Notes: generated from the letters alone by a model not told the origin. A DNA stretch of 23,703 nt from a virus (IMGVR_UViG_2585427753_000011); one strand, 5' to 3'. Numbered from the stretch's first letter, positions 1 through 22,719 are shown. Program-made: numbers and translations.

Positions 1-981
1 TTATAACGTCACTCCGCCTTTTAGTGGATTCAGAGCGACGGCATTTTGCAGATAGTCAGGCGCAAGGTGCGCATAGGCCATCGTCTGCTGAATGCTCGCA
101 TGTCCCAGAATCTGTTGCAGTGCGATTATATTGCCCCCATTCATCATGAAATGGCTTGCGAATGTATGCCGCAGGATGTGGGTTGCCTGATTGGGTGGTA
201 TATCAGGTTTCACTCTGCGTAAAATCCCGCAAAATTTCTCATAATCAACTTTGAATAATTTGGCGCTGGCCTCCTCTTTAACTTTTTTCTCCAGTTCCTC
301 AGAAATCGGCACGGTTCGCTTTTTACCGTTTTTGGTTTTCAGGAAGGTAACCCTGCAATTTGTAATCTGTGCTGGTTTTAGCGTGGCAACTTCCGTCCAT
401 CTTCCTCCAGTGCTCAGACATAAAAGCGCGACAAGTAAGTCATCACCAGCCAAAACATTTAACAGTTTTTCGATTTCTGCTTTTTCCAGGAACGTCATTT
501 CAGGGTTGGCTTCCGCCAGTGGCGGCAGTCCGTGAATTGGGTGTTGCCCGGAAAATTCATCCAATTGAATTAATTTTGTGAACATGCCGGATAATCGGTA
601 CATGTCACGGTTTATCGTTGCGGCACTGATACCATCACGTAGTCGCATGGAACGATAATCCATCAAAGCCCTTTTGCTCATCCTGCTCACTGGTATATCA
701 CCTATGCCGCTGATGGTTTTGAGTAGATGATTAAACTCTTTTGTTCCATGCTCGTGGTTTTGCCCGTGATATTTCCACCAGATGTCCAGCAACTCACTCA
801 AAGTCCGGCGGTCTGCTCGCTGGCCTCCCCATTCTTTCTGACTGGCATTGGCGATTGTGTATCGCTCAAATGCTAGTGCTTCAGCTTTTCTTTCGAATTT
901 CCTGCGGATGCGTTTTCCGTCGCGGCCGCGAGGTCTAATGTCCACTTCATAGCGACCATCATCGAGCTTCTTAATTGCCAT
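1..981 (-). CDS. int: P2-like tyrosine integrase
   Basis: ORF 1..1011 translation carries a C-terminal tyrosine-recombinase region (HxLRHTFA...LGH...MAYAH) and the P2 Int-like N-terminus MAIKKLDDGRYEVD. I place the start at the internal ATG (979-981), which has a GGAGGG Shine-Dalgarno ~7 nt upstream; the ATG at 1009-1011 has none. Stop codon is at window positions 1-3. Confidence 0.9.
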   Translation of the reverse strand: MAIKKLDDGRYEVDIRPRGRDGKRIRRKFERKAEALAFERYTIANASQKEWGGQRADRRTLSELLDIWWKYHGQNHEHGTKEFNHLLKTISGIGDIPVSRMSKRALMDYRSMRLRDGISAATINRDMYRLSGMFTKLIQLDEFSGQHPIHGLPPLAEANPEMTFLEKAEIEKLLNVLAGDDLLVALLCLSTGGRWTEVATLKPAQITNCRVTFLKTKNGKKRTVPISEELEKKVKEEASAKLFKVDYEKFCGILRRVKPDIPPNQATHILRHTFASHFMMNGGNIIALQQILGHASIQQTMAYAHLAPDYLQNAVALNPLKGGVTL

Positions 982-1050
982 AAGAAAGCCCTCCGGCGCT
1001 GTATTCACCATCTTGGTAGCAAATGGTGAAAATGTAATCTTTATATAGAG

Positions 1051-1344
1051 TTAGCCAATCCTTTTCGCGGAGTGGTTGGACTCTGTTGACTCTGGCCCAA
1101 TGTGCGCGAGAGCCGGTGCGATTTGTCCTGCGTCCGGCGCGGTTTTATCTGTCATAAGCCATAGAGCATATTTTTGGAATGTGGGATGCATAGTGATTTT
1201 TAGCAAAGCTGTGCCACCAGGTTCAAAGTTTCCTCCTTCATATTTTTTAAGTGTGCTTAGTGGTAAGTCTATGATTTCACAGAATTTTGATTGGCTTAGC
1301 CCTTCAGCCTCACGCAAGGCCTTAATCTTTTCGCTTAATTTCAT
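1051..1344 (-). CDS. C: Immunity repressor C (XRE-type HTH)
   Basis: 97-aa ORF divergent from cox, between int and cox as in P2; N-terminal HTH-like segment (LSQSKFCEIIDLPLSTLKKYE). Confidence 0.8.
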   Translation of the reverse strand: MKLSEKIKALREAEGLSQSKFCEIIDLPLSTLKKYEGGNFEPGGTALLKITMHPTFQKYALWLMTDKTAPDAGQIAPALAHIGPESTESNHSAKRIG

Positions 1345-1465
1345 TTGACATGGTGCCTATATAGGGACTAAATTCCCTCAAAACTGGAACCTATATAGGT
1401 TCCATTGATTTGAGAATAAACCAGCGTCTAAACGGTTTTGAGTGGTTTAGAAAGGGCTGGATCCT
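1345..1465. promoter_or_regulatory. C/cox immunity switch region with two CCTATATAGG palindromes and a TTGACA hexamer
   Basis: Palindrome CCTATATAGG at 1356-1365 and again at 1390-1399 (second extends to GGAACCTATATAGGTTCC, 1386-1403); TTGACA at 1345-1350. Lies between divergent C and cox. Confidence 0.5.
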
Positions 1466-1753
1466 ATGAGGGTACCATATATGGACGCTGAAAATTATGT
1501 GATTCAGTATCCGCTGGACGCGGTTCATGTGGATAAATTTGCTGATTTATTAGGGAAGCCAAAGACAGCCGTCAGTGAAATGGTGAAGGCAAATAAATTA
1601 CCAATTATTGAATTACGTGATCCTTGCAAACCGAAGGCTCGTGCCGGTGAAAAATGGGTTTTCATTCCTGAGTTTAATCGCGCTGTACGTGAGGCGTTTT
1701 ATAACCGACCGGTTGAACAGCGTGATGCATGGCTTTTGTGGATGGGGTTGTGA
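1466..1753 (+). CDS. cox: Cox (excisionase / transcriptional switch protein)
   Basis: 95-aa ORF in the P2 cox position; resembles P2 Cox. Start could instead be the ATG at 1481. Confidence 0.8.
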   Translation: MRVPYMDAENYVIQYPLDAVHVDKFADLLGKPKTAVSEMVKANKLPIIELRDPCKPKARAGEKWVFIPEFNRAVREAFYNRPVEQRDAWLLWMGL

Positions 1754-1755
1754 TT

Positions 1756-1926
1756 ATGAATGAGCCGCGTTGTATTGCTCAGTTATTGCGTAACGAAAGC
1801 CCCAGGGTGATTGACTTCACCATCACCCACGGGAAGGGACGCAAGGGAATCATTATCCGCACCAAAAAACAGAGTCCGTTAAAGAAGGCTCTGACCTTTC
1901 TGAAAAGCCGGAGGGTCTGGAAATGA
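1756..1926 (+). CDS. Small hypothetical protein (P2 orf78-like position)
   Basis: ORF 1729..1926; start chosen at internal ATG 1756 (MNEPRCIAQ...) just past the cox stop; stop overlaps B start (ATGA). Confidence 0.5.
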   Translation: MNEPRCIAQLLRNESPRVIDFTITHGKGRKGIIIRTKKQSPLKKALTFLKSRRVWK

Positions 1927-2423
1927 CAGTGATGACGCTTAATCTCGTTGAAAAACAGCCAGCAGCTATGCGCCGGATAATTGGTAAGCATCTGGCCGTC
2001 CCTCGCTGGCAGGATACATGTGATTATTATAATCAGATGATGGAACGCGAACGGCTAACAGTTTGCTTTCATGCGCAGTTAAAACAACGTCATGCAACGA
2101 TGCGTTTTGAAGAAATGAACGACGTCGAACGTGAACGGCTGGTTTGTGCAATTGATGAATTGCGTGGGGCATTCTCAAAACGCCGTCAGGTTGGCGCAAG
2201 TGAGTATGCATATATTAGTTTTTTAACAGTCAGTCAGCGTCGTACTTTATTTATGCATGCCGGATTGACTGAAAAAGAATTCAACCAGCCATACTGGCGA
2301 ATTAATGAAGAGTCATGTTACTGGCGTGATGCTTTATTCCGTGCATTACGTGAATTATTCAGCCTGTTTGAGTATGCACCGACAATTCTGACGTCGGTAA
2401 AACCAGAGCAATATCTGCATTAA
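1923..2423 (+). CDS. B: Replication protein B (helicase-loader-like)
   Basis: 166-aa ORF, same length and position as P2 B. Confidence 0.85.
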   Translation: MTVMTLNLVEKQPAAMRRIIGKHLAVPRWQDTCDYYNQMMERERLTVCFHAQLKQRHATMRFEEMNDVERERLVCAIDELRGAFSKRRQVGASEYAYISFLTVSQRRTLFMHAGLTEKEFNQPYWRINEESCYWRDALFRALRELFSLFEYAPTILTSVKPEQYLH

Positions 2424-2486
2424 ATAATTAACCAGAGTTTTAAACGCACTTAATCGTGCGGGGCTTCTTTTTGCCTGGAGAAAGTC

Positions 2487-2711
2487 ATGCATACAGTTTC
2501 TGAAAATCAGTGCGGTAAATACGCATTACTGCTGCAACAGGCCAGAACCGAAGCACAGGCTGACGCTGCGACGCGCTTTTCTTCTCATCTTGACGCCATG
2601 ATTCGCCATATCACAAAGGCGGAGTTATCCCGCGTGGAGATAGTCGAGCTACTCAGTCAGGAGTCGGAAAAATTTCACAATATCGGATTGTCTCGCGGGG
2701 AGGGGCTTTGA
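2487..2711 (+). CDS. Hypothetical early protein (P2 orf80-like)
   Basis: 74-aa ORF in conserved position; stop overlaps next start. Confidence 0.6.
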
Positions 2712-3010
2712 TGTCCTGTTCTCATTCAGTTGTATTACTGAATAACGCCTTAAAAATCGCCGTTATGAAAAATGGCGATTTGTCTCTTATCCAACTTTGT
2801 CTTGATAAAGAAAAACGCGACATCACTGAATCTGTTATCGCGATTTATCAGAGCGAATTAAACCTCCTGTCTGATGTGATCAATTTACTTGTGAAACGCG
2901 CTGTATTCCACAAGCAAATTTCCTCAGTGGATGAACTGACAAAATTAACGACAGAACTCGCCAGTTATTGCGCTGATGTATCCAGGAAACTTAACGATAA
3001 AAGGAGCTGA
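2708..3010 (+). CDS. Hypothetical early protein (P2 orf81-like)
   Basis: 100-aa ORF, translationally coupled to neighbours. Confidence 0.6.
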
Positions 3011-3012
3011 TA

Positions 3013-3237
3013 ATGCCGGACAACGTAGATTTTATTCAGGAACAACAGGCTGAATTACTGGAGCGCCAGATTAACGCGGCAAGGGTAAAACATTGCGGTG
3101 TTTCTTCGCTGGTTTGCGAAGAGTGTGACGCTCCAATACCTGCTGCCCGTCGTGCGGCTTATCCGTCAGCCACGCGTTGTGTTTCCTGTCAGTCAGTCTT
3201 TGAAGCAAAAAACAAACATTACCGGAGAACGGCATGA
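3013..3237 (+). CDS. TraR/DksA-family C4 zinc-finger protein (P2 orf82-like)
   Basis: 74 aa with CxxC...CxxC (CEECDAPIP...CVSCQ), typical of phage TraR/DksA-like zinc fingers. Confidence 0.75.
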   Translation: MPDNVDFIQEQQAELLERQINAARVKHCGVSSLVCEECDAPIPAARRAAYPSATRCVSCQSVFEAKNKHYRRTA

Positions 3238-3509
3238 GTATTCGTATTGAAATTGGCGAACGTTATGTCGTTACCAGTGACAGCTTTCAGTTTATTCTCC
3301 ACGAGAAAAAGAGAGCGGAAAGCGGTAAAAACGCCGGTCAGGAATGGCTGGCGGTGGTTGGTTATTACCCGAAATTAAGCCAGCTCGTTTCCGGCCTGAT
3401 GCATCACGATATTCTGACCGGAAGCGCAAAGTCTTTTGCTGATTTAAACGGGCAGGTTGAGCAACTCAGCAAGCGTTGTTCAGAGGCTTTTGGCTCATAT
3501 GGCCGTTAA
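3234..3509 (+). CDS. Hypothetical early protein (P2 orf83-like)
   Basis: 91-aa ORF; stop overlaps the A start. Confidence 0.6.
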   Translation: MSIRIEIGERYVVTSDSFQFILHEKKRAESGKNAGQEWLAVVGYYPKLSQLVSGLMHHDILTGSAKSFADLNGQVEQLSKRCSEAFGSYGR

Positions 3510-5778
3510 AGCCTCCGGGCGTTTTGTCCCTCCGTCAGCATTTGCCGCAGGCACCGGTAAGACGTTTACCGGTGCTTATGCATGGAACGCGCCACGCGAG
3601 GCCGTCGGGCGCGAAAGACCCCTTACACGTGACGAGATGCGTCAGGTGCAAGGTGTTTTATCCACGATTAACCGCCTGCCTTACTTTTTGCGTTCGCTGT
3701 TTACTTCACGCTATGACTACATCCGGCGCAATAAAAGCCCGGTGCACGGGTTTTATTTCCTCACATCCACTTTTCAGCGTCGTTTATGGCCGCGCATTGA
3801 GCGCGTGAATCAGCGCCATGAAATGAACACCGACGCGTCGTTACTGTTTCTGGCAGAGCGTGACCACTATGCGCGCCTGCCGGGAATGAATGACAAGGAG
3901 CTGAAAAAATTTGCCGCCCGTATCTCATCGCAGCTTTTCATGATGTATGAGGAACTCTGCGATGCCTGGGTGGATGCCCATGGCGAAAAAGAATCGCTGT
4001 TTACGGATGAGGCGCAGGCTCACCTGTATGGTCATGTTGCTGGCGCTGCACGTGCTTTCAATATTTCCCCGCTCTACTGGAAAAAATACCGTAAAGGACA
4101 GATGACCACGAGGCAGGCATATTCTGCCATTGCCCGCCTGTTTAACGATGAGTGGTGGACTCATCAGCTTAAAGGCCAGCGTATGCGCTGGCATGAGGCG
4201 TTACTGATTGCTGTCGGGGAGGTCAATAAAGACCGTTCTCCTTATGCCAGTAAACATGCCATTCGTGATGTGCGTGCACGCCGCCAGGCAAATCTGGAAT
4301 TTCTTAAATCGTGTGACCTTGAAAACAGGGAAACCGGCGAGCGCATCGACCTTATCAGTAAGGTGATGGGCAGTATTTCTAATCCTGAAATTCGCCGGAT
4401 GGAGCTGATGAACACCATTGCCGGTATTGAGCGTTACGCCGCAGCAGAGGGTGATGTGGGGATGTTTATCACGCTGACCGCGCCGTCAAAGTATCACCCG
4501 ACACGTCAGGTCGGAAAAGGCGAAAGTAAAACCGTCCAGCTAAATCACGGCTGGAACGATGAGGCATTTAATCCAAAGGATGCGCAGCGTTATCTCTGCC
4601 ATATCTGGAGCCTGATGCGCACGGCATTCAAGGATAATGATTTACAGGTCTACGGTTTGCGTGTCGTCGAGCCACACCACGACGGAACGCCGCACTGGCA
4701 TATGATGCTTTTTTGTAATCCACGCCAGCGTAACCAGATTATTGAAATCATGCGTCGCTATGCGCTCAAAGAGGATGGCGACGAAAGAGGAGCCGCGCGA
4801 AACCGTTTTCAGGCAAAACACCTTAACCGGGGCGGTGCTGCGGGATATATCGCGAAATACATCTCAAAAAACATCGACGGCTATGCACTGGATGGTCAGC
4901 TCGATAATGATACCGGTAGGCCGCTGAAAGACACAGCTGCGGCTGTTACCGCATGGGCGTCAACGTGGCGCATTCCGCAATTTAAAACGGTTGGTCTGCC
5001 GACAATGGGGGCTTACCGTGAACTACGCAAATTGCCTCGCGGCGTCAGCATTGCTGATGAGTTTGACGAGCGCGTCGAGGCTGCACGCGCCGCTGCAGAC
5101 AGTGGTGATTTTGCGTTGTATATCAGCGCGCAGGGCGGGGCAAATGTCCCGCGCGATTGTCAGACTGTCAGGGTCGCCCGTAGCCCGTCGGATGACGTTA
5201 ACGAGTACGAGGAAGAAGTCGAGAGAGTGGTCGGCATTTACGCGCCGCATCTCGGCGCGCGTCATATTCATATCACCAGAACGACGGACTGGCGCATTGT
5301 TCCGAAAGTGCCGGTCGTTGAGCCTTTGACTTTAAAAAGCGGCATCGCCGCGCCTCGGAGTCCTGTCAATAACTGTGGAAAGCTCACCGGTGGTGATACT
5401 TCGTTACCGGCTCCCACACCTTCTGAGCACGCCGCAGCAGTGCTTAATCTGGTTGATGACGGTGTTATTGAATGGAATGACCAGGAGGTCGTGAGGGCGC
5501 TCAGGGGCGCATTAAAACGAGGTCTGAGAAGACCAAACCGTCAGCAAAGAAACGGAAGCCCGTTAAAACAGCATGAAATGGCACCATCGGCCAGACTGAC
5601 CCGGTCAGAACGAATGCAAATTACCCGTATCCGCGTTGACCTTGCTCAGAACGGTATCAGGCCGCAGCGATGGGAGCTTGAGGCGCTGGCGCGTGGAGCA
5701 ATTGTAAATTACGACGGGAAAAAATTCACGTATCCAGTCGCTGATGAGTGGCGGGGATTCTCAGCAGTAATGGAGTGA
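3499..5778 (+). CDS. A: Replication initiation endonuclease A (rolling-circle HUH endonuclease)
   Basis: Track ORF 3457..5778; start set at ATG 3499 (MAVKASGRF...) by resemblance to the P2 gpA N-terminus and coupling to the upstream stop. Contains a histidine-rich HUH-type motif (HHDGTPHWHMMLF). Confidence 0.9.
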   Translation: MAVKASGRFVPPSAFAAGTGKTFTGAYAWNAPREAVGRERPLTRDEMRQVQGVLSTINRLPYFLRSLFTSRYDYIRRNKSPVHGFYFLTSTFQRRLWPRIERVNQRHEMNTDASLLFLAERDHYARLPGMNDKELKKFAARISSQLFMMYEELCDAWVDAHGEKESLFTDEAQAHLYGHVAGAARAFNISPLYWKKYRKGQMTTRQAYSAIARLFNDEWWTHQLKGQRMRWHEALLIAVGEVNKDRSPYASKHAIRDVRARRQANLEFLKSCDLENRETGERIDLISKVMGSISNPEIRRMELMNTIAGIERYAAAEGDVGMFITLTAPSKYHPTRQVGKGESKTVQLNHGWNDEAFNPKDAQRYLCHIWSLMRTAFKDNDLQVYGLRVVEPHHDGTPHWHMMLFCNPRQRNQIIEIMRRYALKEDGDERGAARNRFQAKHLNRGGAAGYIAKYISKNIDGYALDGQLDNDTGRPLKDTAAAVTAWASTWRIPQFKTVGLPTMGAYRELRKLPRGVSIADEFDERVEAARAAADSGDFALYISAQGGANVPRDCQTVRVARSPSDDVNEYEEEVERVVGIYAPHLGARHIHITRTTDWRIVPKVPVVEPLTLKSGIAAPRSPVNNCGKLTGGDTSLPAPTPSEHAAAVLNLVDDGVIEWNDQEVVRALRGALKRGLRRPNRQQRNGSPLKQHEMAPSARLTRSERMQITRIRVDLAQNGIRPQRWELEALARGAIVNYDGKKFTYPVADEWRGFSAVME

Positions 5779-6019
5779 ACGTCGCCCGTTGCGAAAATTA
5801 TTTACAGGGGGCAGCGTTAAGCATCTAAAGATCTTGTTCTATGATTAGAATGTTTCCTCGTTGCACTCTCGTATAGTTATTTAATGGGAAGATGTACTCT
5901 ATATGTTGTGTTTTGGTGATAAATGAAGCCAAAGGAAGGAGATTTTGCTTGATTGATGGGCGCTCTTTGCTATACACCTTGTATTGAGAAGGAGAAGTAA
6001 TCAAGGATTAAGCTGGCTT

Positions 6020-6073
6020 TTGTCAAAAATCTGAAAAGCTTTTTTGACTGAATACGATAGCGAGTTGTACTAT
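6020..6073 (+). promoter_or_regulatory. Candidate sigma70 promoter with overlapping inverted repeats upstream of the cargo membrane operon
   Basis: -35 TTGACT (6044-6049), 18-nt spacer, -10 TACTAT (6068-6073), ~35 nt upstream of ATG 6108. Inverted repeat GTCAAAAA (6022-6029) / TTTTTGAC (6041-6048) and palindrome AAAAGCTTTT (6034-6043) overlap the -35. Confidence 0.35.
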
Positions 6074-6107
6074 TTGCGCCCTCAAAAGTAACCGGCGGCT
6101 GGGTAAA

Positions 6108-6482
6108 ATGGGGAAGCAAGGCAAAGGCAAAGGCAACAAAAATCAGGTTAAGGTTACGTGGGCTCAGGCGTGGCGGGATGTAATGATAAGAGCCATGTCT
6201 AATGGTCAGTTGATACCTATTACCATCAGTATTATTTTAATGATTGCTGCATGGAGGTTACCAAAAACAGACTTGTCCAATTTAGCCTTCTCTATTGTTG
6301 ATGGCTTTAAGGAGCATTCCTTGGTTGGTTGGGCTATCTCGGTAATAGTGGGTTTGGCTTGGTCTGCACATGCGCGAATCATGAGGCGCTGTTTTAGTTC
6401 CGAGGCACAGAGAATCGGTAACGAGAAAACAAAGTATCAACAAAGACAGACCACTCAAGCCTTGGGTACAAGTGATAAATAG
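6108..6482 (+). CDS. Cargo gene 1: small two-transmembrane-helix protein with Lys/Gly-rich N-terminus
   Basis: 124-aa ORF; two hydrophobic segments (LIPITISIILMIAAW; LVGWAISVIVGLAWSAHA). Weak SD, so start is uncertain (alternative Met at 6183/6195). AT-rich relative to backbone. Confidence 0.6.
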   Translation: MGKQGKGKGNKNQVKVTWAQAWRDVMIRAMSNGQLIPITISIILMIAAWRLPKTDLSNLAFSIVDGFKEHSLVGWAISVIVGLAWSAHARIMRRCFSSEAQRIGNEKTKYQQRQTTQALGTSDK

Positions 6483-6502
6483 TTGTTTATTTAGGAGTTA
6501 TT

Positions 6503-7060
6503 ATGCTGACAGTGCTGTTTTATGTGCTGTTGGGTTTAGGCGCAGCACACTTCATTTACGAGCGAATCATTTTGCCGTCCATCCGACTTCATTATAGAAA
6601 CCAATTGTTTGCGCTTCGTGATGTCGCTAGGAGGAAAATCATTGATGGAGGTTCCGATACTTCCATGCAAGCGGCAACACTTGTGCATGACTCATTGAAT
6701 AACGCTATCAATAGATTGCATTTACTCACGTTGCCAAACAAATTTCGTGCTCAAAAGCGTATGGCAGAAAACCATGCAATAAGGCAGAAAATTCGGCGTG
6801 AGATAGATGTTTTCAAACGCTGTGATGATAGAGAAGTTGTTGATGTACTGTTTAAATCCGGTCGGATACTTGAAAATGTACTGTTATTCAATAGCTTAAT
6901 GTTATTGCTTTACATGTTTCCATTTGTCCTTGCTGTATGGTTCTGTGTTAGGGTCATAAAGACAGCAAGTAGTTTAGTACAGTGGGTCAAAGGAAGAGAT
7001 TTAGAGGAAGCTATAATGCTGCTTCCTGATACTCAGGTTGAAAAGGTTGTATACGCATAA
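6503..7060 (+). CDS. Cargo gene 2: membrane protein with N- and C-terminal hydrophobic helices
   Basis: 185-aa ORF with strong SD (AGGAG ~5 nt upstream); hydrophobic N-terminus (LTVLFYVLLGLGAAHFIY) and C-terminal segment (LLFNSLMLLLYMFPFVLAVWFCV) around a charged helical region; 20 nt after gene 1. Confidence 0.7.
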   Translation: MLTVLFYVLLGLGAAHFIYERIILPSIRLHYRNQLFALRDVARRKIIDGGSDTSMQAATLVHDSLNNAINRLHLLTLPNKFRAQKRMAENHAIRQKIRREIDVFKRCDDREVVDVLFKSGRILENVLLFNSLMLLLYMFPFVLAVWFCVRVIKTASSLVQWVKGRDLEEAIMLLPDTQVEKVVYA

Positions 7061-7088
7061 AAATCACCCCTTAGGGGGTGATTTTTTT
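7061..7088 (+). terminator. Rho-independent terminator ending the two-gene membrane operon
   Basis: Stem ATCACCCC (7063-7070) / GGGGTGAT (7075-7082), loop TTAG, followed by a T-run; immediately after the stop at 7060. Confidence 0.8.
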
Positions 7089-7299
7089 ACATGACTTTTG
7101 ATTAGCTGACATTGTAAATCCGCATGTATCAGATGCATTGTTTTGCATGTGGAAATGGGTGTTTTCACTGCCAGCTATCGCTACATGTAGCAAAAACACG
7201 GGCTTAATAAGAAATCATTCTGCCATAAGGCATAACTTCCCCGCGTGCTCAGGTATTGACGTCATAGATATGGATCTTTTTTAATCAAGGTATGGTATT

Positions 7300-8247
7300 A
7301 TGAAGATATTTATTAGTTGGTCAGGTCAGGACAGCCTGGAGATAGCAAAAGTATTACGGGATTGGATACCGAATGTTATTCAAGTAGCTGAGCCGTACGT
7401 ATCAGCGGAAGATATTGATAAAGGCACTCGCTGGGCGACTGATATATCAAAGGAACTTGATGACTCTTCTTATGGGATTATTTGCCTTACAAAAAATAAT
7501 ATTAATGCACCGTGGATAAATTTTGAGGCGGGTGCTTTAGGTAAAAAGGTTGATAAGAGCCGGGTTAGTCCTTTCTTGTTTAAAATTAAACCATCTGAGA
7601 TAACAGGCCCAATATTACAATTCCAGTATACTCGTTCGGATGATAAGAACGATATTTTGAAGTTGATGTTGTCAATAAATAATCAAGCAGGATTTTTGAC
7701 TGAAGAACGCTTAACTAAAGCTTTCGAGCAATGGTGGCCAAGTTTAGAGCGTGAGTTAGATAACATTCAAGATATTAACCCTGTAGATAAAGATTCCACT
7801 AAAAAAACAAAAGGTGATTCGACTTCTGAGATACAAAATCTTTCCAAAATTGTTGAAAGTTTGCTGGATATTAGCCGAACAAATCACCAATTATTGCGTG
7901 ATCCAGCATCATTATTGCCAGAAGAATATGTTAGCAAAATAATAAACAGGGAAGGGCGTAAAGAAACTGTTTTAAAAATTGTAGCTTCTGATTTATTATC
8001 CATGCATCATTCACTAATTCGTGTAAAAAGAAGATTTATTCGTCGTGGTATTGATGAAACATCTAGGAGCGAGTTAATTGAATCATTAAATAAAATGATA
8101 ATGGATTGTTCTAGAGTAATCGCTCACTTAGATAATTATTGTGGGGCTTCATCAAACAATATGTTCAATAGTGCGCTTAGATTGCGGACCAGAAATTTAA
8201 TTGACATGATGGATGAGGAGGATGCAGAACGGGATGAAATGGAATAA
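7300..8247 (+). CDS. Cargo gene 3: TIR-domain protein with uncharacterised C-terminal helical domain
   Basis: 315 aa. N-terminal ~130 aa has TIR hallmarks: KIFISWSGQDS first strand, GIICLT strand, and W-x-x-F-E-A-G motif (WINFEAGAL) aligning by eye with the catalytic-Glu region of bacterial TIR NADases. C-terminal ~170 aa has no motif I recognise. Own transcription unit. Confidence 0.75.
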   Translation: MKIFISWSGQDSLEIAKVLRDWIPNVIQVAEPYVSAEDIDKGTRWATDISKELDDSSYGIICLTKNNINAPWINFEAGALGKKVDKSRVSPFLFKIKPSEITGPILQFQYTRSDDKNDILKLMLSINNQAGFLTEERLTKAFEQWWPSLERELDNIQDINPVDKDSTKKTKGDSTSEIQNLSKIVESLLDISRTNHQLLRDPASLLPEEYVSKIINREGRKETVLKIVASDLLSMHHSLIRVKRRFIRRGIDETSRSELIESLNKMIMDCSRVIAHLDNYCGASSNNMFNSALRLRTRNLIDMMDEEDAERDEME

Positions 8248-8298
8248 TCAATTTTGACTAATCATAAATAATTTTGCATATATAAACTTATAATGCCG

Positions 8299-8321
8299 CA
8301 GCCGCTATTTTTCAGCGGCTG
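8299..8321 (+). other. Stem-loop downstream of the TIR gene (possible weak terminator or RNA structure)
   Basis: CAGCCGCT (8299-8306) / AGCGGCTG (8314-8321), 7-nt loop ATTTTTC; no U-tract after the stem. Confidence 0.3.
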
Positions 8322-14377: not shown

Positions 14378-14383
14378 AGAGGT

Positions 14384-15169
14384 TTATGAGTGATTTTTAT
14401 TTGATGCTTTGTATTCTAAAACCTTCTTATTGGCGTAAAAGAATTTTGTATATGACAGGAATATAACCAGACCTGAAGTGAAATAGACGAGGGATAGTAT
14501 TAATAATGCTTTTTTGCGACTGTTATTATCTTTAATCTCCAGGCTTAACCATTCGGAGTCCTCCTCGTTTAGCTGTAAGAGCTTATTGCAGGCGATTTCA
14601 GGAAGTGTGTCTTTTATAAATACGTTTTGCAGTCTCTTGCAATCGGCAAGGCTATAAGTTTTATTAAATTCAACTGCTTTATTTTTGAAGGATAAAAGAA
14701 CTTTGTCACTATAAACATAGTACATCATGTTTTTATATGGTATGCCTATGGCATCCCTTACTATAACGGATTGTTCGTTGTGTATGTAACATGCGAGGAG
14801 AATGTAAAAAATACTGGCCAGAATTACAATTATTGTTTTAATTATGTGTGGTGGTTTTGTTATGTCACCCCAGATGCGAGTAAGGAAAAAATACGATGTT
14901 TTTAGTTTTCCATCAATCAGTCCCTGCTGTATCATTCTCACATTTTCAATGCCTGATACATTGATTCCGTTAATTATTTTAAATAGTTGAATGTCGCGCC
15001 ACTCGCGGTCAAGTCTTTTTAATTTTTTGTCTGAATATCCAAAATTGAAATAATGTGCAATAAGCCTCATAAGGTTACTTTTACCAAAGCTAAAAAATGC
15101 TAATACTGCAAAGCTACAAAGGAAAAAAACGATTAGCCCCCACACATTAGTCACATTATAGCTGACCAT
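14384..15169 (-). CDS. AT-rich moron at the P2 orf30 position: membrane protein with ~3 TM helices, unknown function
   Basis: 261-aa ORF antisense to the late operons between S and V; hydrophobic segments near aa 9-28, 111-131 and 228-247; Lys/Asn/Ile/Phe-rich. Confidence 0.7.
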   Translation of the reverse strand: MVSYNVTNVWGLIVFFLCSFAVLAFFSFGKSNLMRLIAHYFNFGYSDKKLKRLDREWRDIQLFKIINGINVSGIENVRMIQQGLIDGKLKTSYFFLTRIWGDITKPPHIIKTIIVILASIFYILLACYIHNEQSVIVRDAIGIPYKNMMYYVYSDKVLLSFKNKAVEFNKTYSLADCKRLQNVFIKDTLPEIACNKLLQLNEEDSEWLSLEIKDNNSRKKALLILSLVYFTSGLVIFLSYTKFFYANKKVLEYKASNKNHS

Positions 15170-15252
15170 TACGCTCTCCTTGAATGTTGTCTGGTAGTTC
15201 TACAAATGAATCCAGATAGCATAACTTTTATATATTGTGCAATCTCACATGC

Positions 15253-15888
15253 ATGAACACTCTCGCAAATATTCAGGAACTCGCGCGCGCACTGCGCAAC
15301 ATGATTCGCACCGGCATTATCGTCGAAACCGACCTTAACGCCGGTCGCTGCCGCGTGCAGACCGGCGGCATGTGCACCGACTGGCTTCAGTGGCTGACCC
15401 ATCGCGCCGGTCGTTCGCGCACATGGTGGGCACCTTCCGTGGGGGAACAGGTGCTGATTCTGTCCGTGGGCGGTGAACTCGACACGGCGTTTGTTCTGCC
15501 GGGGATTTATTCCGGCGATAATCCCGCGCCGTCTGCGTCGGCGGATGCCCTGCATATCCGTTTCCCTGACGGGGCGGTGATTGAGTATGAACCCGAAACC
15601 AGTGCGCTCACGGTAAGCGGAATTAAAACGGCCAGCGTGACGGCTTCCGGTTCTGTTACTGCCACTGTGCCGGTGGTCATGGTGAAAGCGTCAACCCGCA
15701 TCACCCTGGACACACCGGAGGTGGTCTGCACCAACAGGCTGATTACCGGCACGCTGGAAGTGCAGAAGGGCGGGACGATGCGCGGCAACATTGAACACAC
15801 CGGCGGTGAACTCTCATCAAACGGTAAGGTACTGCATACCCATAAACACCCCGGCGACAGCGGCGGCACAACCGGGAGTCCTCTATGA
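15253..15888 (+). CDS. V: Baseplate spike protein V
   Basis: Track ORF 15235..15888; start set at ATG 15253 (MNTLANIQELARA...) to give the 211-aa P2 gpV; stop overlaps W start. Confidence 0.9.
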   Translation: MNTLANIQELARALRNMIRTGIIVETDLNAGRCRVQTGGMCTDWLQWLTHRAGRSRTWWAPSVGEQVLILSVGGELDTAFVLPGIYSGDNPAPSASADALHIRFPDGAVIEYEPETSALTVSGIKTASVTASGSVTATVPVVMVKASTRITLDTPEVVCTNRLITGTLEVQKGGTMRGNIEHTGGELSSNGKVLHTHKHPGDSGGTTGSPL

Positions 15889-16232
15889 CAGCGCGTTATC
15901 TCGGAATGAATCGCAGTGATGGCCTGACGGTCACTGACCTTGAGCATATCAGCCAGAGTATCGGCGATATCCTGCGCACACCGGTCGGCTCACGGGTGAT
16001 GCGCCGTGATTACGGCTCGTTGCTGGCGTCAATGATTGACCAGCCGCAGACCCCGGCGCTTGAGTTGCAGATTAAGGTCGCCTGTTACATGGCGGTGCTG
16101 AAATGGGAACCCCGCGTCACCCTGTCATCCGTCACCACGGCGCGCAGTTTTGACGGGCGAATGACGGTCACGTTAACCGGTCAGCACAACGACACCGGTC
16201 AGCCACTTTCGTTAACCATCCCTGTGAGTTGA
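15885..16232 (+). CDS. W: Baseplate wedge protein W
   Basis: 115 aa, P2 gpW length and position. Confidence 0.9.
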   Translation: MTARYLGMNRSDGLTVTDLEHISQSIGDILRTPVGSRVMRRDYGSLLASMIDQPQTPALELQIKVACYMAVLKWEPRVTLSSVTTARSFDGRMTVTLTGQHNDTGQPLSLTIPVS

Positions 16233-16236
16233 AACC

Positions 16237-17145
16237 ATGCCGATTATCGACCTGAACCAGCTACCCGCACCGGATGTGGTCGAGGAGCTGGACTTTGAAA
16301 CCATTCTTGCCGAACGCAAGGCGACACTGATTTCCCTTTACCCGGAAGACCAGCAGGAGGTGGTCGCCCGTACCCTGACGCTGGAATCGGAGCCTCTCGT
16401 CAAACTGCTGGAAGAAAATGCTTATCGTGAGCTTATCTGGCGTCAGCGTGTGAATGAGGCCGCACGGGCGGTGATGCTGGCCTGTGCCGCCGGTAATGAC
16501 CTTGATGTGATTGGTGCCAATTACAACACCACACGCCTGATTATCATCCCGGCAGATGATTCGACCATCCCGCCGACACCGGCAGTGATGGAATCTGACA
16601 CCGATTATCGTCTGCGTATTCAGCAGGCGTTTGAAGGTTTAAGCGTTGCCGGGTCGGTGGGAGCCTATCAGTATCATGGTCGCAGTGCCGACGGGCGTGT
16701 CGCGGATATCTCTGTCACCAGTCCGTCTCCGGCCTGTGTCACTATCTCCGTGCTGTCCCGAGAAAATAACGGTGTCGCATCCGAAGACCTGCTGGCTGTG
16801 GTGCGTAACGCTCTTAATGGCGAGGACGTCAGGCCGGTGGCTGACCGTGTGACCGTGCAGTCTGCCGCCATTGTTGAATACCAGATAAACGCCACGCTGT
16901 ATCTTTACCCTGGTCCAGAAAGCGAACCCATCCGCGCCGCCGCCGTGAAAAAACTGGAAGCGTACATCACGGCACAGCACCGGCTGGGGCGCGACATCCG
17001 TCTGTCTGCCATTTATGCCGCTTTGCATGTGGAAGGCGTGCAGCGTGTCGAACTGACTGCACCGCTGGCTGACATCGTGCTCAACAGTACGCAGGCGTCT
17101 TTCTGCACCGAATACAGCGTCGTGACCGGAGGCTCGGATGAGTGA
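16237..17145 (+). CDS. J: Baseplate protein J
   Basis: 302 aa, P2 gpJ length and position. Confidence 0.9.
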   Translation: MPIIDLNQLPAPDVVEELDFETILAERKATLISLYPEDQQEVVARTLTLESEPLVKLLEENAYRELIWRQRVNEAARAVMLACAAGNDLDVIGANYNTTRLIIIPADDSTIPPTPAVMESDTDYRLRIQQAFEGLSVAGSVGAYQYHGRSADGRVADISVTSPSPACVTISVLSRENNGVASEDLLAVVRNALNGEDVRPVADRVTVQSAAIVEYQINATLYLYPGPESEPIRAAAVKKLEAYITAQHRLGRDIRLSAIYAALHVEGVQRVELTAPLADIVLNSTQASFCTEYSVVTGGSDE

Positions 17146-17668
17146 TTCGCGACTGCTGCCGACCGGCTCATCACCGCTTGAGGTCGCCGCCGCAAAAGCC
17201 TGTGCGGAAATTGAAAAAACACCGGTCAGTATTCGTGAGCTGTGGAACCCGGACTCCTGTCCGGCAAATCTGCTGCCGTGGCTGGCGTGGGCGTTTTCGG
17301 TCGACAGGTGGGATGAAAAGTGGCCGGAAGCGACAAAACGCGCCGTTATCCGCGATGCCTATTTCATCCACTGTCATAAAGGCACTATCGGCGCAATCCG
17401 ACGCGTGGTGGAGCCGCTCGGCTATCTCATCAACGTGACGGAGTGGTGGGAAAACAGTGACCCGCCCGGCACCTTCCGGCTTGATATTGGTGTACTGGAA
17501 AGCGGTATCACAGAGGCAATGTATCAGGAAATGGAACGGCTGATTGCCGATGCCAAACCTGCAAGCCGCCACCTTATTGGCCTGAACATTACCCGGGACA
17601 TTCCCGGCTATCTGTTCGCCGGTGGTGTGGCTTACGACGGCGATGTAATTACGGTTTACCCCGGATAA
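17138..17668 (+). CDS. I: Baseplate protein I
   Basis: 176 aa, P2 gpI length and position; overlaps J end. Confidence 0.9.
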   Translation: MSDSRLLPTGSSPLEVAAAKACAEIEKTPVSIRELWNPDSCPANLLPWLAWAFSVDRWDEKWPEATKRAVIRDAYFIHCHKGTIGAIRRVVEPLGYLINVTEWWENSDPPGTFRLDIGVLESGITEAMYQEMERLIADAKPASRHLIGLNITRDIPGYLFAGGVAYDGDVITVYPG

Positions 17669-17678
17669 GTGAGGAATA

Positions 17679-19724
17679 ATGAGCATAAAATTCAGAACCG
17701 TTATCACCACTGCCGGTGCAGCAAAGCTGGCAGCGGCAACCGCGCCGGGAGGGCGGAAGGTCAACATTACCACGATGGCCGTCGGGGATGGCGGTGGTAA
17801 ATTGCCTGTCCCGGATGCCGGACAGACCGGGCTTATCCATGAAGTCTGGCGACATGCGCTGAACAAAATCAGCCAGGACAAACGAAACAGTAATTATATT
17901 ATCGCCGAGCTGGTTATTCCGCCGGAGGTGGGCGGTTTCTGGATGCGTGAGCTTGGCCTGTACGATGATGCGGGAACATTAATTGCCGTGGCGAACATGG
18001 CCGAAAGTTATAAGCCAGCTCTTGCCGAAGGCTCAGGGCGTTCGCAGACCTGTCGCATGGTCATCATCGTCAGCAGTGTGGCCTCAGTGGAGCTGACCAT
18101 TGACACCACAACGGTGATGGCGACTCAGGATTACGTTGATGACAAAATTGCAGAGCATGAACAGTCACGACGTCACCAGGACGCCTCGCTGACCGCAAAA
18201 GGTTTTACTCAGTTAAGCAATGCGACCAACAGCACGTCTGAAACACTGGCCGCAACGCCGAAAGCGGTTAAGGCCGCATATGACCTTGCTAACGGGAAAT
18301 ATACCGCACAGGACGCTACCACAGCGCGAAAAGGTCTTGTCCAGCTAAGTAGTGCGACCAACAGCATATCTGAAACGCTCGCCGCAACACCAAAAGCCGT
18401 TAAGACGGTAATGGATGAAACGAACAAGAAAGCGCCATTAAACAGCCCTGCACTGACCGGAACGCCAACGACGCCAACTGCGCGACAGGGAACGAATAAT
18501 ACTCAGATCGCAAACACGGCTTTCGTTATGGCCGCGATTGCCGCCCTTGTAGACTCGTCGCCTGACGCACTGAATACGCTGAACGAGCTGGCGGCGGCGC
18601 TGGGCAATGACCCGAATTTTGCTACCACCATGACTAATGCGCTTGCGGGTAAGCAACCGAAAGATGCCACTTTGACGGCGCTGGCGGGGCTTGCTACTGC
18701 GGCAGACAGGTTTCCGTATTTTACGGGGAATGATGTTGCCAGCCTGGCGACCCTGACAAAAGTCGGGCGGGATATTCTGGCTAAATCGACCGTTGCCGCT
18801 GTTATCGAATATCTCGGTTTACAGGAAACGGTAAACCGAGCCGGGAACGCCGTGCAAAAAAATGGCGATACTTTGTCCGGCGGGCTTACTTTTGAAAACG
18901 ACTCAATCCTTGCCTGGATTCGAAATACTGACTGGGCGAAGATTGGATTTAAAAATGATGCCGATGGTGACACTGATTCATATATGTGGTTTGAAACAGG
19001 TGACAACGGCAATGAATATTTCAAATGGAGAAGTCGCCAGAGCACCACAACAAAAGACCTGATGAATCTTAAATGGGATGCTCTGTATGTTCTTGTTAAA
19101 GCCCTTTTCAGCAGTGAAGTAAAAATATCTACAGTCAATGCACTGAGGATATTTAATTCATCTTTTGGGGCTATTTTTCGCCGTTCTGAAGAAAACCTGT
19201 ATATCATTCCTACACGAGAAAATGAGGGTGAAAATGGAGATATTGGGCCATTAAGGCCATTCGGCATCAACTTAAGAACAGGAGTTGTGTCTGTTGGTAA
19301 TGGTGCCAGGATTGATGGCGGGCTGGCACTTGGCACGAATAACGCGTTGGGTGGGAACTCTATTGTTCTTGGTGATAACGACACCGGATTTAAACAAAAT
19401 GGCGATGGTAATCTGGATGTTTATGCTAATAACGTCCATGTTATGCGCTTTGTTTCCGGAAGCATTCAAAGTAATAAGACCATAAATATTACGGGGCGTG
19501 TTAATCCCTCGGATTACGGTAACTTTGATTCCCGCTATGTGAGAGATATCAGACTTGGCACACGTGTTGTCCAGACCATGCAGAAAGGGGTGATGTATGA
19601 GAAAGCAGGGCACGTAATTACCGGGCTTGGTATTGTCGGTGAAGTCGATGGTGATGACCCCGCAGTATTCAGGCCAATACAAAAATACATCAATGGCACA
19701 TGGTATAACGTCGCACAGGTGTAA
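17679..19724 (+). CDS. H: Tail fiber protein H
   Basis: 681 aa; conserved N-terminal tail-fiber region, internal repeated motif (...SETLAATPKAVK... twice), divergent C-terminal receptor-binding part. Confidence 0.9.
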   Translation: MSIKFRTVITTAGAAKLAAATAPGGRKVNITTMAVGDGGGKLPVPDAGQTGLIHEVWRHALNKISQDKRNSNYIIAELVIPPEVGGFWMRELGLYDDAGTLIAVANMAESYKPALAEGSGRSQTCRMVIIVSSVASVELTIDTTTVMATQDYVDDKIAEHEQSRRHQDASLTAKGFTQLSNATNSTSETLAATPKAVKAAYDLANGKYTAQDATTARKGLVQLSSATNSISETLAATPKAVKTVMDETNKKAPLNSPALTGTPTTPTARQGTNNTQIANTAFVMAAIAALVDSSPDALNTLNELAAALGNDPNFATTMTNALAGKQPKDATLTALAGLATAADRFPYFTGNDVASLATLTKVGRDILAKSTVAAVIEYLGLQETVNRAGNAVQKNGDTLSGGLTFENDSILAWIRNTDWAKIGFKNDADGDTDSYMWFETGDNGNEYFKWRSRQSTTTKDLMNLKWDALYVLVKALFSSEVKISTVNALRIFNSSFGAIFRRSEENLYIIPTRENEGENGDIGPLRPFGINLRTGVVSVGNGARIDGGLALGTNNALGGNSIVLGDNDTGFKQNGDGNLDVYANNVHVMRFVSGSIQSNKTINITGRVNPSDYGNFDSRYVRDIRLGTRVVQTMQKGVMYEKAGHVITGLGIVGEVDGDDPAVFRPIQKYINGTWYNVAQV

Positions 19725-19727
19725 TTT

Positions 19728-20255
19728 ATGCAGCATTTAAAAAATATTACTGCGGGTAATCCAAAAACTGTTGCCCAATATCAACTGACAAAAAATTTTG
19801 ATGTTATCTGGTTATGGTCCGAAGAGGGAAAAAACTGGTATGAGGAAGTAAGTAATTTTCAGGAAGACACGATAAAGATTGTTTACGACGAGAATAATAT
19901 AATTGTCGGCATCACCAGAGATGCTTCAACGCTTAACCCTGAAGGTTTCAGCGTTGTCGAGGTTCCTGATATTACCTCCAACCGACGTGCTGATGACTCA
20001 GGTAAATGGATGTTTAAGGATGGTGCCGTGATTAAGCGGATTTATACGGCAGATGAACAGGAGCAACAGGCAGAATCACAAAAAGCAGCTTTACTTTCCG
20101 AAGCGGAAAGCGTTATTCAGCCACTGGAACGCGCTGTCAGGCTGAATATGGCGACGGATGAGGAATGCGCACGACTGGAGTCATGGGAACGCTACAGCGT
20201 TCTGATCAGCCGTGTGGATCCTGCAAATCCTGAATGGCCGGAAATGCCGCAATAA
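19728..20255 (+). CDS. G: Tail fiber assembly chaperone G
   Basis: 175 aa, immediately after H, P2 gpG length. Confidence 0.85.
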
Positions 20256-20476
20256 GTTGTATAAGCTCTGGTGTGAGATTACATATCTATGGCACAGAGT
20301 AAAGCCTAATCTGACAGGCCGCTCTGTGTCTGGAGTAGATTTTAGTAAAGCATTATTTTATTAGTGCAAATTCTAATCAATACATTTTATGTATATGATA
20401 TCCTACGGACTTTAATGACTTGGTTTAGGCTAACCAGATAACACTGAAGGAATATTTTTGATAATTAAGGTGCGGT

Positions 20477-21070
20477 ATGTTTACTAAGCGACGATTAAAA
20501 AATATTAACTGGGAGGCAAGTTCAGTGATTCTTGCTATGGTTCTCTTTGTTGGAAATATATTTTATACAAATCATCGTGATGATATAAGCATGGAGGCTG
20601 AGAGGGACAGTATCAGAACAATGTTTGCATATGAAATCGCTAATAACCATCGCGCTCTCACTTTTCTTGATAAAACGAGACATATTGGCTTTGACGAAAA
20701 TTCGGAGCATTTTGTTGGCGAGCCTTTTGCCATTAATGTCAAATCATTAGGGGGACCTCGCTTACAGATTGCATTAAACCAGACTGATAAAGTGTTTAAA
20801 TCCTACTTCGGCGAATTAAGTAAGCTTGATAAAGAGGATGTTACTCTTCTTATGGACTATTACCATGAGCAAAGCATCCTGCTGGAGCGTGTAAAATCTA
20901 CGTTACAGAAGATGAAAAGTGGTAATGATATTAAAGTTGATATTGATGGTTGCTTATTAGAAGAACACTTCATGAATGAGCTTAATCTTTCTAATATTTT
21001 GCTTAAACGCTATAGCTATTTATTATCACAACACGCTAAGGAACATAAAACAAAAGATTTACATAATTGA
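20477..21070 (+). CDS. AT-rich moron at the P2 Z/fun position: 197-aa protein with one N-terminal TM helix, unknown function
   Basis: ORF between G and the FI remnant, where P2 carries Z/fun; AT-rich flanks; hydrophobic segment SSVILAMVLFVGNIFY near the N-terminus. Confidence 0.65.
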   Translation: MFTKRRLKNINWEASSVILAMVLFVGNIFYTNHRDDISMEAERDSIRTMFAYEIANNHRALTFLDKTRHIGFDENSEHFVGEPFAINVKSLGGPRLQIALNQTDKVFKSYFGELSKLDKEDVTLLMDYYHEQSILLERVKSTLQKMKSGNDIKVDIDGCLLEEHFMNELNLSNILLKRYSYLLSQHAKEHKTKDLHN

Positions 21071-21258
21071 TAATCTGCTAATGGTTATTCATGGGGTAAC
21101 TATGTTTTATATGTAATCCAGCCCAGATGAATTATTGATTCTGGATAATAACCGCAGAGCGGCATATACCCTGACAGGCAAATGTCCGCTTCTTGCTCAA
21201 AGCAGACTGTCAGATTTGATAACTTTTGGGCTATGTAAACTGTCAGTCGGAAAATGAG

Positions 21259-21276
21259 TGTGTACAAATCAGGACA
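21259..21276 (+). promoter_or_regulatory. Candidate Ogr-dependent late promoter element (TGT-N12-ACA) upstream of the FI remnant
   Basis: TGTgtacaaatcaggACA at 21259-21276, ~125 nt upstream of the FI start codon; dyad of the type described for P2 late promoters. Confidence 0.4.
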
Positions 21277-21399
21277 GGCGGGGGGAATGCCCGCATTTTC
21301 TTTATCTGTTGTTTCATCCACTGACCAGCCAGGTCAAATAGCGTCTCATGTACTACCCAACGGAAAATAGTTGCACCCATTAACCACGGAGTTAAACGG

Positions 21400-21513
21400 A
21401 TGAGTGACTATCATCACGGCGTGCAGGTGCTGGAGATTAACGACGGCACCCGCGTCATTTCCACCGTATCCACAGCCATTGTCGGCATGGTCTGCACGGC
21501 TAGCCTCCCGTAA
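21400..21513 (+). pseudogene. FI: Tail sheath FI, N-terminal fragment (~35 codons) ending at a deletion junction
   Basis: ATG 21400 with GGAG SD encodes [35 protein letters not shown], which I recognise as the P2 sheath N-terminus; frame then hits TAA at 21511-21513. Confidence 0.75.
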
Positions 21514-22264
21514 CAGGCTGGAAGCCAGTGTCGCTCCGTCACTGGCCGGAATTAAAATCCCGCACATCGACCAGTCGCAGGAGTCCGATGCGAAATTCCT
21601 GACCCGTCTTGCTGAACGCAACGGCGGTGAGGTGTCGGTAAAAATGGGAAAACTGCTGTTTCTCAAAGCGGGGCAGGGGGGGACGGTCAGCGGTAAAAAA
21701 ATCCCGCAGATTACCATCACCCGCAGCGACGGCGACCGTCATCATTTTGCGATTGCTGACCGTGGAGCCTACACAGGCGTAACGGCAAAGTGGTTACACA
21801 CCAAAGACCCGAAGCCGCAAAAGCAGAAGGTAAAACTGAAACGCAAAAAGAAAGAGAAACACCTGCGCGCACTGGAGCACCCGAAAGCGAAACCGGTCAC
21901 GCAGAAGAAAGAGCCAAAAGTACCGGAAGCGCGCGAAGGTGAATACATGGCCGGTGAGGCTGACAACGTTTTTGCCCTGACCACGGTATATGCCACGAAA
22001 GCACAGGCCATGCGCGCCGCTCAGGCGAAGTGGGATAAACTGCAACGGGGTGTTGCGGAGTTCTCCATCAGCCTGGCTACTGGTCGGGCAGATATTTACA
22101 CGGAAACGCCGGTCAGAGTGTCAGGCTTTAAGCGCGTCATAGACGAGCAGGACTGGACAATCACTAAGGTGACACATTTTCTGAATAATAGCGGCTTCAC
22201 GACGTCCCTGGAGCTTGAGGTCAGGCTTTCTGATGTGGAGTACGAAACAGAAGATGATGAGTGA
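21506..22264 (+). pseudogene. D: Tail protein D, C-terminal ~250 aa, N-terminally truncated
   Basis: Track ORF 21404..22264 is an artefactual frame over the FI fragment; from about [22 protein letters not shown]... it reads as the C-terminal part of P2 gpD, ending ...EYETEDDE. No start codon or SD. Confidence 0.75.
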
Positions 22265-22345
22265 TGTAATTTATTTATCTGTTTGTTTTATAAGGATAAA
22301 TTAACTAAAATGGCACCATCAACAAAACCGGAAGAGGTGCTCGCG

Positions 22346-22564
22346 ATGTTTCATTGTCCTTTATGCCAGCATGCCGCACATGCGCGTACAAGCCGCTATA
22401 TCACTGACACGACAAAAGAGCGTTATCACCAGTGTCAGAACGTGAATTGCAGCGCCACGTTCATCACTTATGAGTCGGTACAGCGATACATCGTGAAGCC
22501 GGGAGAAGTCCATGCCGTAAGGCCGCACCCGTTGCCGTCAGGACAGCAAATTATGTGGATGTAA
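22346..22564 (+). CDS. ogr: Late gene activator Ogr (zinc-finger)
   Basis: Start at ATG 22346 gives 72 aa MFHCPLCQHAAHARTSRYITDTT...CQNVNC..., the P2 Ogr sequence as I recall it; track ORF 22283 has an N-terminal extension. Confidence 0.9.
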   Translation: MFHCPLCQHAAHARTSRYITDTTKERYHQCQNVNCSATFITYESVQRYIVKPGEVHAVRPHPLPSGQQIMWM

Positions 22565-22574
22565 TCACAAAAAT

Positions 22575-22600
22575 AGCCCCTCAGTTGAGGGGCTTTATTT
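22575..22600 (+). terminator. Rho-independent terminator after ogr
   Basis: Stem AGCCCCTC (22575-22582) / GAGGGGCT (22587-22594), loop AGTT, then TTATTT. Confidence 0.75.
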
Positions 22601-22692
22601 ATGGTCGATGTGGACGCTATGTGGACAGCGTTTGATATAAATCCATTTATATCATCAGGTTAGGTGCTTTTTTGTGACACCATCCCTGTCTT

Positions 22693-22719
22693 CCCCCACA
22701 TGATGTGGGGGTTTTTTTT
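22693..22719 (+). terminator. Terminator-like hairpin plus T-run in the prophage-host junction (attR vicinity)
   Basis: CCCCCAC (22693-22699) / GTGGGGG (22705-22711), then an 8-nt T-run (22712-22719); between ogr and host fieF. Confidence 0.6.

Follow-up and report, generated by a model that had tools for sequence, protein, structure and literature searches.

A recently decayed P2-family prophage of Escherichia coli that keeps its integrase, replication genes, cos site and a TIR-based defence system

The 23,703-nucleotide stretch IMGVR_UViG_2585427753_000011, hereafter the window, very probably carries a defective P2-family (Peduovirus) prophage, closely related to Escherichia phage P2_AC1 (AC1), that underwent two deletions after lysogeny and whose remaining genes owe their intactness to the recency of these events. 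In a megablast search of the whole window against phage records, AC1 (33,349 bp) was the best match, with 96% window coverage and 98.1% identity, and many other Peduovirus genomes ranked next with about 70% coverage. Among complete E. coli genomes the best-matching loci extend over about 34 kb, against 23.7 kb for the query, and none holds the window contiguously, the deleted form being absent from complete RefSeq E. coli. Apart from two gaps, blastn comparison with AC1 and P2 shows the collinear P2 gene order int-C-cox-B-A-(hotspot)-cos-Q-P...lys-R-S-V-W-J-I-H-G...D-ogr, and the other features that mark a member of Peduovirus are likewise present, namely a P2-type cos, an ori inside A, Ogr together with TGT-N12-type late promoters, and the direct repeat of the att site.

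The annotated locus of E. coli D7 (CP010150) has an intact prophage between cpxP and fieF, and the edges of the window fall on the int stop codon (position 1) at the 5′ side and the fieF stop codon at the 3′ side. The fieF gene (22801-23703, plus strand; 99.7% identity to D7 FieF in tblastn) is a host gene outside the element. The attR core, a 47-bp sequence identical with the cpxP terminator, occupies 22676-22722 and forms a perfect direct repeat with the attL core of a sibling contig (L029), in which attL lies 116-162 bp to the left of the window and thus outside it. The end of the prophage, previously put at 22719 in a first-pass annotation, is thereby moved to 22722, the end of the att core. 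When the sequence to the left of attL is linked through the core to the sequence to the right of attR, the result is exactly the empty attB of E. coli D8, whose left flank is identical, and the phage arms at att are the same as those of AC1 attP. The predicted excised circle is approximately 22.84 kb, or 68% of the AC1 genome. The prophage sits in the cpxP terminator, in the cpxP-fieF interval of the E. coli chromosome, where its own tyrosine integrase inserted it. A tRNA scan of the window and Rfam at gathering thresholds gave no matches.

The deletions were mapped by blastn of the window against AC1 and E. coli D7, and their breakpoints were placed by comparison with AC1 and an intact sibling (L006). 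Four collinear blocks account for the element: window 1-10022, from int to cos, corresponds to AC1 23322-33349; window 10023-11441 and 11617-11992, with cos, Q and the 3′ part of P, correspond to AC1 1-1718 with a repeat expansion in between; window 11989-21504 corresponds to AC1 7034-16549; and window 21501-22722 to AC1 21984-23205. Absent relative to AC1 are therefore positions 1719-7033 (5,315 bp) and 16550-21983 (5,434 bp), and the two clean deletions that had been estimated from the window at about 10 kb sum to 10,749 bp. At the first junction (11989-11992), which carries a GCTG microhomology, the remnant of P on the minus strand is joined to that of K on the plus strand, while at the second (21501-21504), with an AGC microhomology, the start of FI is joined to the end of D out of frame. 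Microhomology of 3-4 bp at both junctions points to illegitimate recombination, of which it is typical.

The first deletion takes the N-terminal 422 residues of P, the whole of O, N, M, L, X and Y and K residues 1-16, and with them the terminase ATPase domain, the small terminase, scaffold, capsid, head completion, X, the holin and the endolysin start; according to the P2 annotation, the same segment also held the divergent promoters PP and PO with the activator site common to both. The second takes FI after codon 35, FII, E/E′, T, U and approximately the first 133 residues of D, so that sheath, tube and tape measure are lost along with E/E′, U and the beginning of D. In agreement with this map, tblastn with the reference proteins found no match in the window for O, N, M, L, X, Y, FII, E, T or U. 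Since these essential genes are absent and P, K, FI and D are truncated, the element can neither assemble virions nor lyse the cell. The loss of essential virion and lysis genes, together with vertical inheritance of the same junctions in the host lineage, characterizes it as a defective prophage.

Four gene fragments flank the junctions. The P remnant (11233-11991, minus strand) is a 248-residue open reading frame (ORF) with a GTG start, which in tblastn covers the last 168 residues of the large terminase (P residues 423-590) and is enlarged by an 84-residue insertion. The insertion corresponds to a 63-bp tandem array at 11365-11694 (5.2 copies with 99% matches according to Tandem Repeats Finder), whose unit equals 21 codons and stays in frame on the minus strand. 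The K remnant (11990-12439, plus strand; K residues 17-165 by tblastn and translation) is an endolysin gene without its first 16 residues and its promoter. It begins right at the conserved VSEGT motif, which contains the catalytic Glu of lambda-R-type transglycosylases, and a GTG at 11996 could begin a 147-residue product, although with promoter and holin gone it is presumably silent. At the second junction, 21308-21513 (plus strand) comprises the pF late promoter (TGT-N12-CCA), located by alignment with P2 pF, and the FI remnant, which translates into 35 sheath codons (FI residues 1-35 in tblastn), two out-of-frame codons and a stop. The D remnant (21505-22264, plus strand) retains approximately residues 134-387 of tail protein D by blastn and tblastn.

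The array differs in length even among close relatives, with 5.2 copies in the window, 6.2 in GCA_000713035.1 and 1.2 in GCA_000714345.1, GCA_052502265.1 and the intact sibling. The value of 1.2, which is also found in the top complete-genome and phage matches, represents the single-copy state, flanked by the 10-bp direct repeat GGTGGCGCTG. The expansion is either a variable-number tandem repeat born in the pseudogene after the deletion or an artefact of copy number in short-read assembly.

Everything outside the two deletions is well preserved. In tblastn with reference proteins and in the ORF list of the window, int, C, cox, B, orf80-83, A, Q, lysA, lysB, lysC, R, S, V, W, J, I, H, G and ogr align end to end and gap-free at 90-100% identity with all frames open. 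The first-pass annotation had listed full-length open genes, all of which hold up in both comparisons, and had named frameshifts or premature stops in int, cox or A as a possible objection, of which tblastn found none. The integrase gene (1-981, minus strand) encodes 326 residues, all identical to those of the E. coli D7 integrase. Next to it lies C (1051-1344, minus strand), a full-length 97-residue immunity repressor with 99% identity to that of D7, which is not of the P2 immunity type; no counterpart of the P2 Pe/Pc operator region maps here. An inverted-repeat search found a palindrome (inverted repeat I2, 1372-1417) in the switch between C and cox, which by its position is the probable operator. 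The cox gene (1481-1753, plus strand; 90 residues, full length, 100% identity) encodes the excisionase and Pc repressor. The early replication operon follows on the same strand: B (1923-2423; 166 residues, 100% identity, with Pfam Phage_RepB recorded for the same product), orf80-orf83 (2487-3509; DUF2732, DUF5405, a TraR/DksA zinc finger and DUF5405, all four full length at 98-99% identity) and the initiator gene A (3499-5778; 759 residues, full length, 99.6% identity).

Among the late genes, the portal gene Q (10199-11233, minus strand; 344 residues, full length, 98.5% identity) is intact with its promoter PP deleted, and lysA, lysB, lysC, R and S (12454-14312, plus strand) are all full length in intact frames with PO deleted. 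The baseplate genes V, W, J and I, the tail fibre gene H (681 residues) and the fibre assembly gene G (15253-20255, plus strand) are also full length, with H at 99% and G at 96% identity to AC1. The ogr promoter, the ogr gene for the 72-residue late activator (22346-22564) and its terminator lie at 22283-22596 (plus strand), Ogr being identical to D7 OgrK at all 72 residues and the promoter and terminator matching P2 at 29 of 30 and 21 of 22 positions.

The cis-acting sites, mapped from the annotated P2 genome, tell a similar story. The 19-nt cohesive end of cos (10023-10041, plus strand) matches GGCGAGGCGGGGAAAGCAC exactly, and its flanks are identical to P2 cosL at 43 of 45 positions and to cosR at 46 of 48. 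The ori nick region inside A (5332-5382) is identical to that of P2 over all 51 nt. With the 47-bp att repeat, the sites for excision, replication and packaging are thus all intact, and it appears plausible that the remnant could still excise and replicate if derepressed, which would be consistent with every sequence feature that can be checked. Of the late promoters, pV with its Ogr activator binding site is intact at 15184-15211 (plus strand), the stretch from this site through the start of V being identical to P2 over 82 of 82 nt; the terminator of the O operon (14342-14378) is identical at 37 of 37 positions, and the Q terminator and the pF region are also present by P2 feature mapping. 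A PP/PO activator site does not map anywhere in the window. Because that region has been deleted, Q with the P remnant and the K remnant with lysA-S are left without late promoters, while V-G and the stub formed by the FI and D remnants would keep Ogr-dependent ones. A scan for perfect TGT-N12-ACA motifs was uninformative, with 3 matches against 5.9 expected.

The age of the deletions can be estimated from relatives. The window is 100% identical to contig JORF01000038.1 of GCA_000713045.1, and the doubly deleted form occurs in GCA_000713035.1, GCA_000714345.1, GCA_052502265.1 and approximately 20 further contigs. The lineage was surveyed by exact-protein look-up with A and LysA, given that B (45,649 blocks) and C (2,181 blocks) were too common and missed the deleted lineage. 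Of the contigs read, 24 carry the exact LysA and at least 23 of these have both deletions; for the exact A protein the figure is at least 21 of 24, and no intermediate with a single deletion was seen among the contigs read. Only one relative that carries these exact proteins is intact, GCA_024706755.1 (L030), and it differs from the deleted sibling L029 by one mismatch and one indel over 11.6 kb (99.98% identity). Such divergence from the intact state, about 1e-4, indicates that the deletions are very recent, and the view that the prophage was recently immobilised is in this respect well founded.

The host flank of GCA_024706755.1 (sodA-kdgT-yiiM-cpxARP; L030 against L029, 1-6339) is only 89.7-92.5% identical and contains an extra DHDPS gene; the divergence is at the species level. 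A near-identical prophage within diverged host flanks implies that the phage has been spreading horizontally very recently and that the deletions followed lysogeny of the present E. coli clone. The AC1-like phage has evidently spread across species, since very recently it has also entered this att site in a divergent species or clade of Escherichia. Base differences private to the window relative to all siblings occur at 2704, 9175, 10834, 10847 and 10852 and in a cluster at 21283-21287, where three substitutions fall within 5 bp in a terminator hairpin upstream of pF; those elsewhere include scattered T-to-G changes. They probably arose as sequencing errors in the 2014 draft and have no biological meaning.

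Between A and cos the remnant carries a complete anti-phage system. PADLOC identifies the three full-length and collinear genes of a 2TM-1TM-TIR system at 6108-8247 on the plus strand: 2TM (6108-6482; 2TM-TIR, 2e-58), 1TM (6503-7060; 1TM-TIR, 3e-75) and TIR-TM (7300-8247; 2e-118), the last of which matches Pfam TIR_2. Compared with the system of AC1, the 1TM protein is identical, the TIR protein matches at 315 of 316 residues and the 2TM protein has one GK repeat fewer. The AC1 system, when cloned, protects against lambda, LF82_P8 and P2 itself (Rousset et al. 2022, PMC9122126). Such close identity suggests that the remnant may still confer TIR-mediated phage defence; through C it would also confer immunity. 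Neither the assembly accessions nor the name of the system turned up in literature searches.

Two further cargo genes (8714-9918, plus strand), for proteins of 94 (8714-8998) and 305 residues (9001-9918), form a cassette between the TIR system and cos within the known P2 defence hotspot and match only PHROG families of unknown function. In the intact sibling the gene for the 94-residue protein has a 1-bp deletion, at window position 8826. Full HMMER searches gave 168 remote relatives of the 305-residue protein (22-29% identity, about 280-300 residues long), in comparison with 2 clusters from a word-indexed search, and residues L84, K88, Y91, R104 and D222 are invariant in this family; a profile built from the 168 relatives matched nothing in the PDB, Pfam or PADLOC, and a single-sequence AlphaFold model with a pLDDT of 33.5 was left unused. 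The pair are candidates for uncharacterised accessory or defence genes. Elsewhere, orf30 (14384-15169, minus strand; 261 residues, 98% identity to AC1, phrog_2407) is, by the P2 annotation, a non-essential P2 gene of unknown function, and a 197-residue gene occupies the Z/fun position (20477-21070, plus strand; 94% identity to AC1, phrog_3829 only). The latter is not a homologue of P2 fun(Z), which encodes 528 residues on the minus strand. None of the four unassigned accessory proteins (94, 305, 261 and 197 residues) has a match in Pfam, NCBIfam or PADLOC, and three of them also lack a sequence match in the PDB.

The intact frames of the cargo have earlier been taken as a sign that it remains under selection, which the age of the remnant does not bear out. 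At a divergence of about 1e-4, some 1-2 substitutions are expected in the whole remnant, so that every undeleted gene, cargo or not, should be intact, and intactness would reflect recency rather than demonstrated selection. The remnant might nevertheless be a domesticated defence island, in which selection keeps the cargo (the TIR system, orf30 and the gene at the Z/fun locus) along with immunity and has favoured the loss of lysis and virion genes. That both deletions are confined to morphogenesis and lysis genes while all accessory genes are spared would fit such an origin, as would the proven activity of the cargo as a defence system in AC1, the unchanged inheritance of the deleted form in at least 23 of 24 contigs read with the exact LysA, and the loss of holin and endolysin, which would remove the lethal step of spontaneous induction. 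However, most of the genome consists of genes for morphogenesis and lysis, and two random deletions of 5 kb would usually fall there, while parts without evident use, such as the promoterless Q and lysA-S and the fragments of P, K, FI and D, are just as intact as the cargo, in keeping with frames that need no selection at this divergence to stay open. Domestication is therefore a tentative reading, which we consider possible but rather doubtful. An assembly artefact, in the deletions, the tandem array or both, would be suggested by the 2014 draft with its scattered private T-to-G differences, by the difficulty of counting 63-bp repeats with short reads and by the absence of the deleted form from complete RefSeq E. 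coli genomes, but it is very improbable, seeing that identical junctions recur in several independent NCBI assemblies with accession series from GCA_0007 to GCA_0525 and that the breakpoints lie in microhomology and not in a collapse-prone repeat; for the array alone an artefact is still possible.

The complete set of int, cox, B, A, ori, cos and both att cores raises the further question of a helper-dependent mobilisable element or nascent satellite, which would excise, replicate and be packaged by a co-infecting P2-like phage, and which with intact Ogr and pV could even supply its own baseplate and fibres. There is a resemblance to satellite P4 in that the element has its own integrase and replication and a P2-type cos and would need the capsid, terminase and tail of a P2-family phage, but it differs from P4 in having no sid, psu, delta, epsilon or alpha primase, in its size (22.8 kb versus 11.6 kb), in its derivation by deletion from a helper-type phage and in the absence of evidence for transfer. 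A P4-like satellite was thus rejected on gene content; searches of Pfam, PHROGs and NCBIfam gave no look-alikes of sid, psu, delta, epsilon or alpha, every ORF being a homologue of P2 or AC1 genes or hotspot cargo. Mobilisation by a helper is possible in principle but would face specific obstacles: a 22.8-kb circle is 68% of the helper in length, cos packaging is size constrained and P4 multimers of the wrong size package poorly; the element's own TIR system restricts P2; and the intact C would block homoimmune helpers, with no evident route to derepression. P2-type prophages are not known to be inducible by the SOS response. A weak negative is also provided by the absence of the exact 30-/31-mers of the junctions from IMG/VR viral contigs. 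Overall, a nascent satellite seems improbable. Slightly more remote still is the speculation that a heteroimmune P2-like infection would trans-activate this Ogr-responsive, cos-bearing and replication-competent remnant, leading either to satellite-like hitch-hiking in the capsids of the invader or to a flood of baseplate and fibre proteins from V-G and of truncated products from the FI and D remnants that mis-assemble with the virions of the invader or re-target them. In the latter event, retention of the pV operon would amount to a second, assembly-level defence or a means of host-range exchange beside the TIR system.

A young defective prophage formed by two deletions after lysogeny is accordingly the reading that we hold with high confidence. 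Some points weigh against it: attL is known from a sibling assembly of the same lineage (L029) and not from the contig of the window itself; the intact sibling has been read as far as the tube gene and its completeness beyond that is assumed; some private base differences, as well as the copy number of the array, may be errors of the draft assembly; and expression, excision and defence in this strain are predictions from sequence. None of the evidence contradicts the anatomy of the element. The kept P2-type baseplate and fibre genes without head genes resemble an R-type tailocin, but this was rejected as FI is cut short at 35 codons, K is truncated and FII, T and Y are absent; without a sheath, tube or tape measure no contractile particle could be made, and without holin or a complete endolysin none could be released.

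Comparison with known elements places the remnant among its relatives. With P2_AC1 (NC_070903; PMC9122126) it shares the gene order, int, att, the immunity type, H and G, orf30, the gene at the Z/fun locus, the TIR/TM system and the 305-residue gene, and it differs in the missing 10.7 kb (P-K and FI-D), the five-copy 63-bp array, the one GK repeat fewer in 2TM and in being a chromosomal remnant and not a viable phage. The intact prophages of E. coli D7 and GCA_024706755.1 have the same cpxP-fieF site, the same integrase (100%) and the A-cos cargo (100% identical proteins in D7), but keep the morphogenesis genes, and D7 in addition has a different C-terminus of H and different genes at the Z/fun locus. 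A second P2-like prophage, decayed independently, occupies the same site in CP193797.1 (7900-20500), where the att-proximal int-C-cox and D′-ogr persist and essential blocks are likewise lost, although by three different deletions, from B to the 3′ part of A, from Q to the end of K and from V to the middle of H. The intact V-W-J-I-H-G block singled out in the first-pass annotation, while indeed full length throughout, consequently has no special status and merely lies between the deletions, as V-I were lost in CP193797.1 instead. The hotspot cargo of that prophage is also different, consisting of ASCH/DUF3850, a DNA methylase and a ParB_N-like protein. Decay among P2-like prophages is also seen in ogrK-yegZ of E. 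coli K-12, a remnant much older and smaller than the one described here, and in the P2-related defective prophage of E. coli B.

The element is in itself an ordinary example of a well-known type, a deletion derivative of a published phage with a published defence system. Being recent, clonally inherited and accompanied by a near-identical intact sibling, it allows the two deletions to be read at base resolution, as a snapshot of how prophage decay begins, and it illustrates that selection need not be invoked for open frames in a remnant. A validated 2TM-1TM-TIR system here outlives its phage vehicle, and it is in this way that prophage hotspots seed chromosomal defence islands. The lineage may also offer a natural test of whether a helper can mobilise a P2 derivative that has neither capsid nor tail but possesses cos, ori and int.

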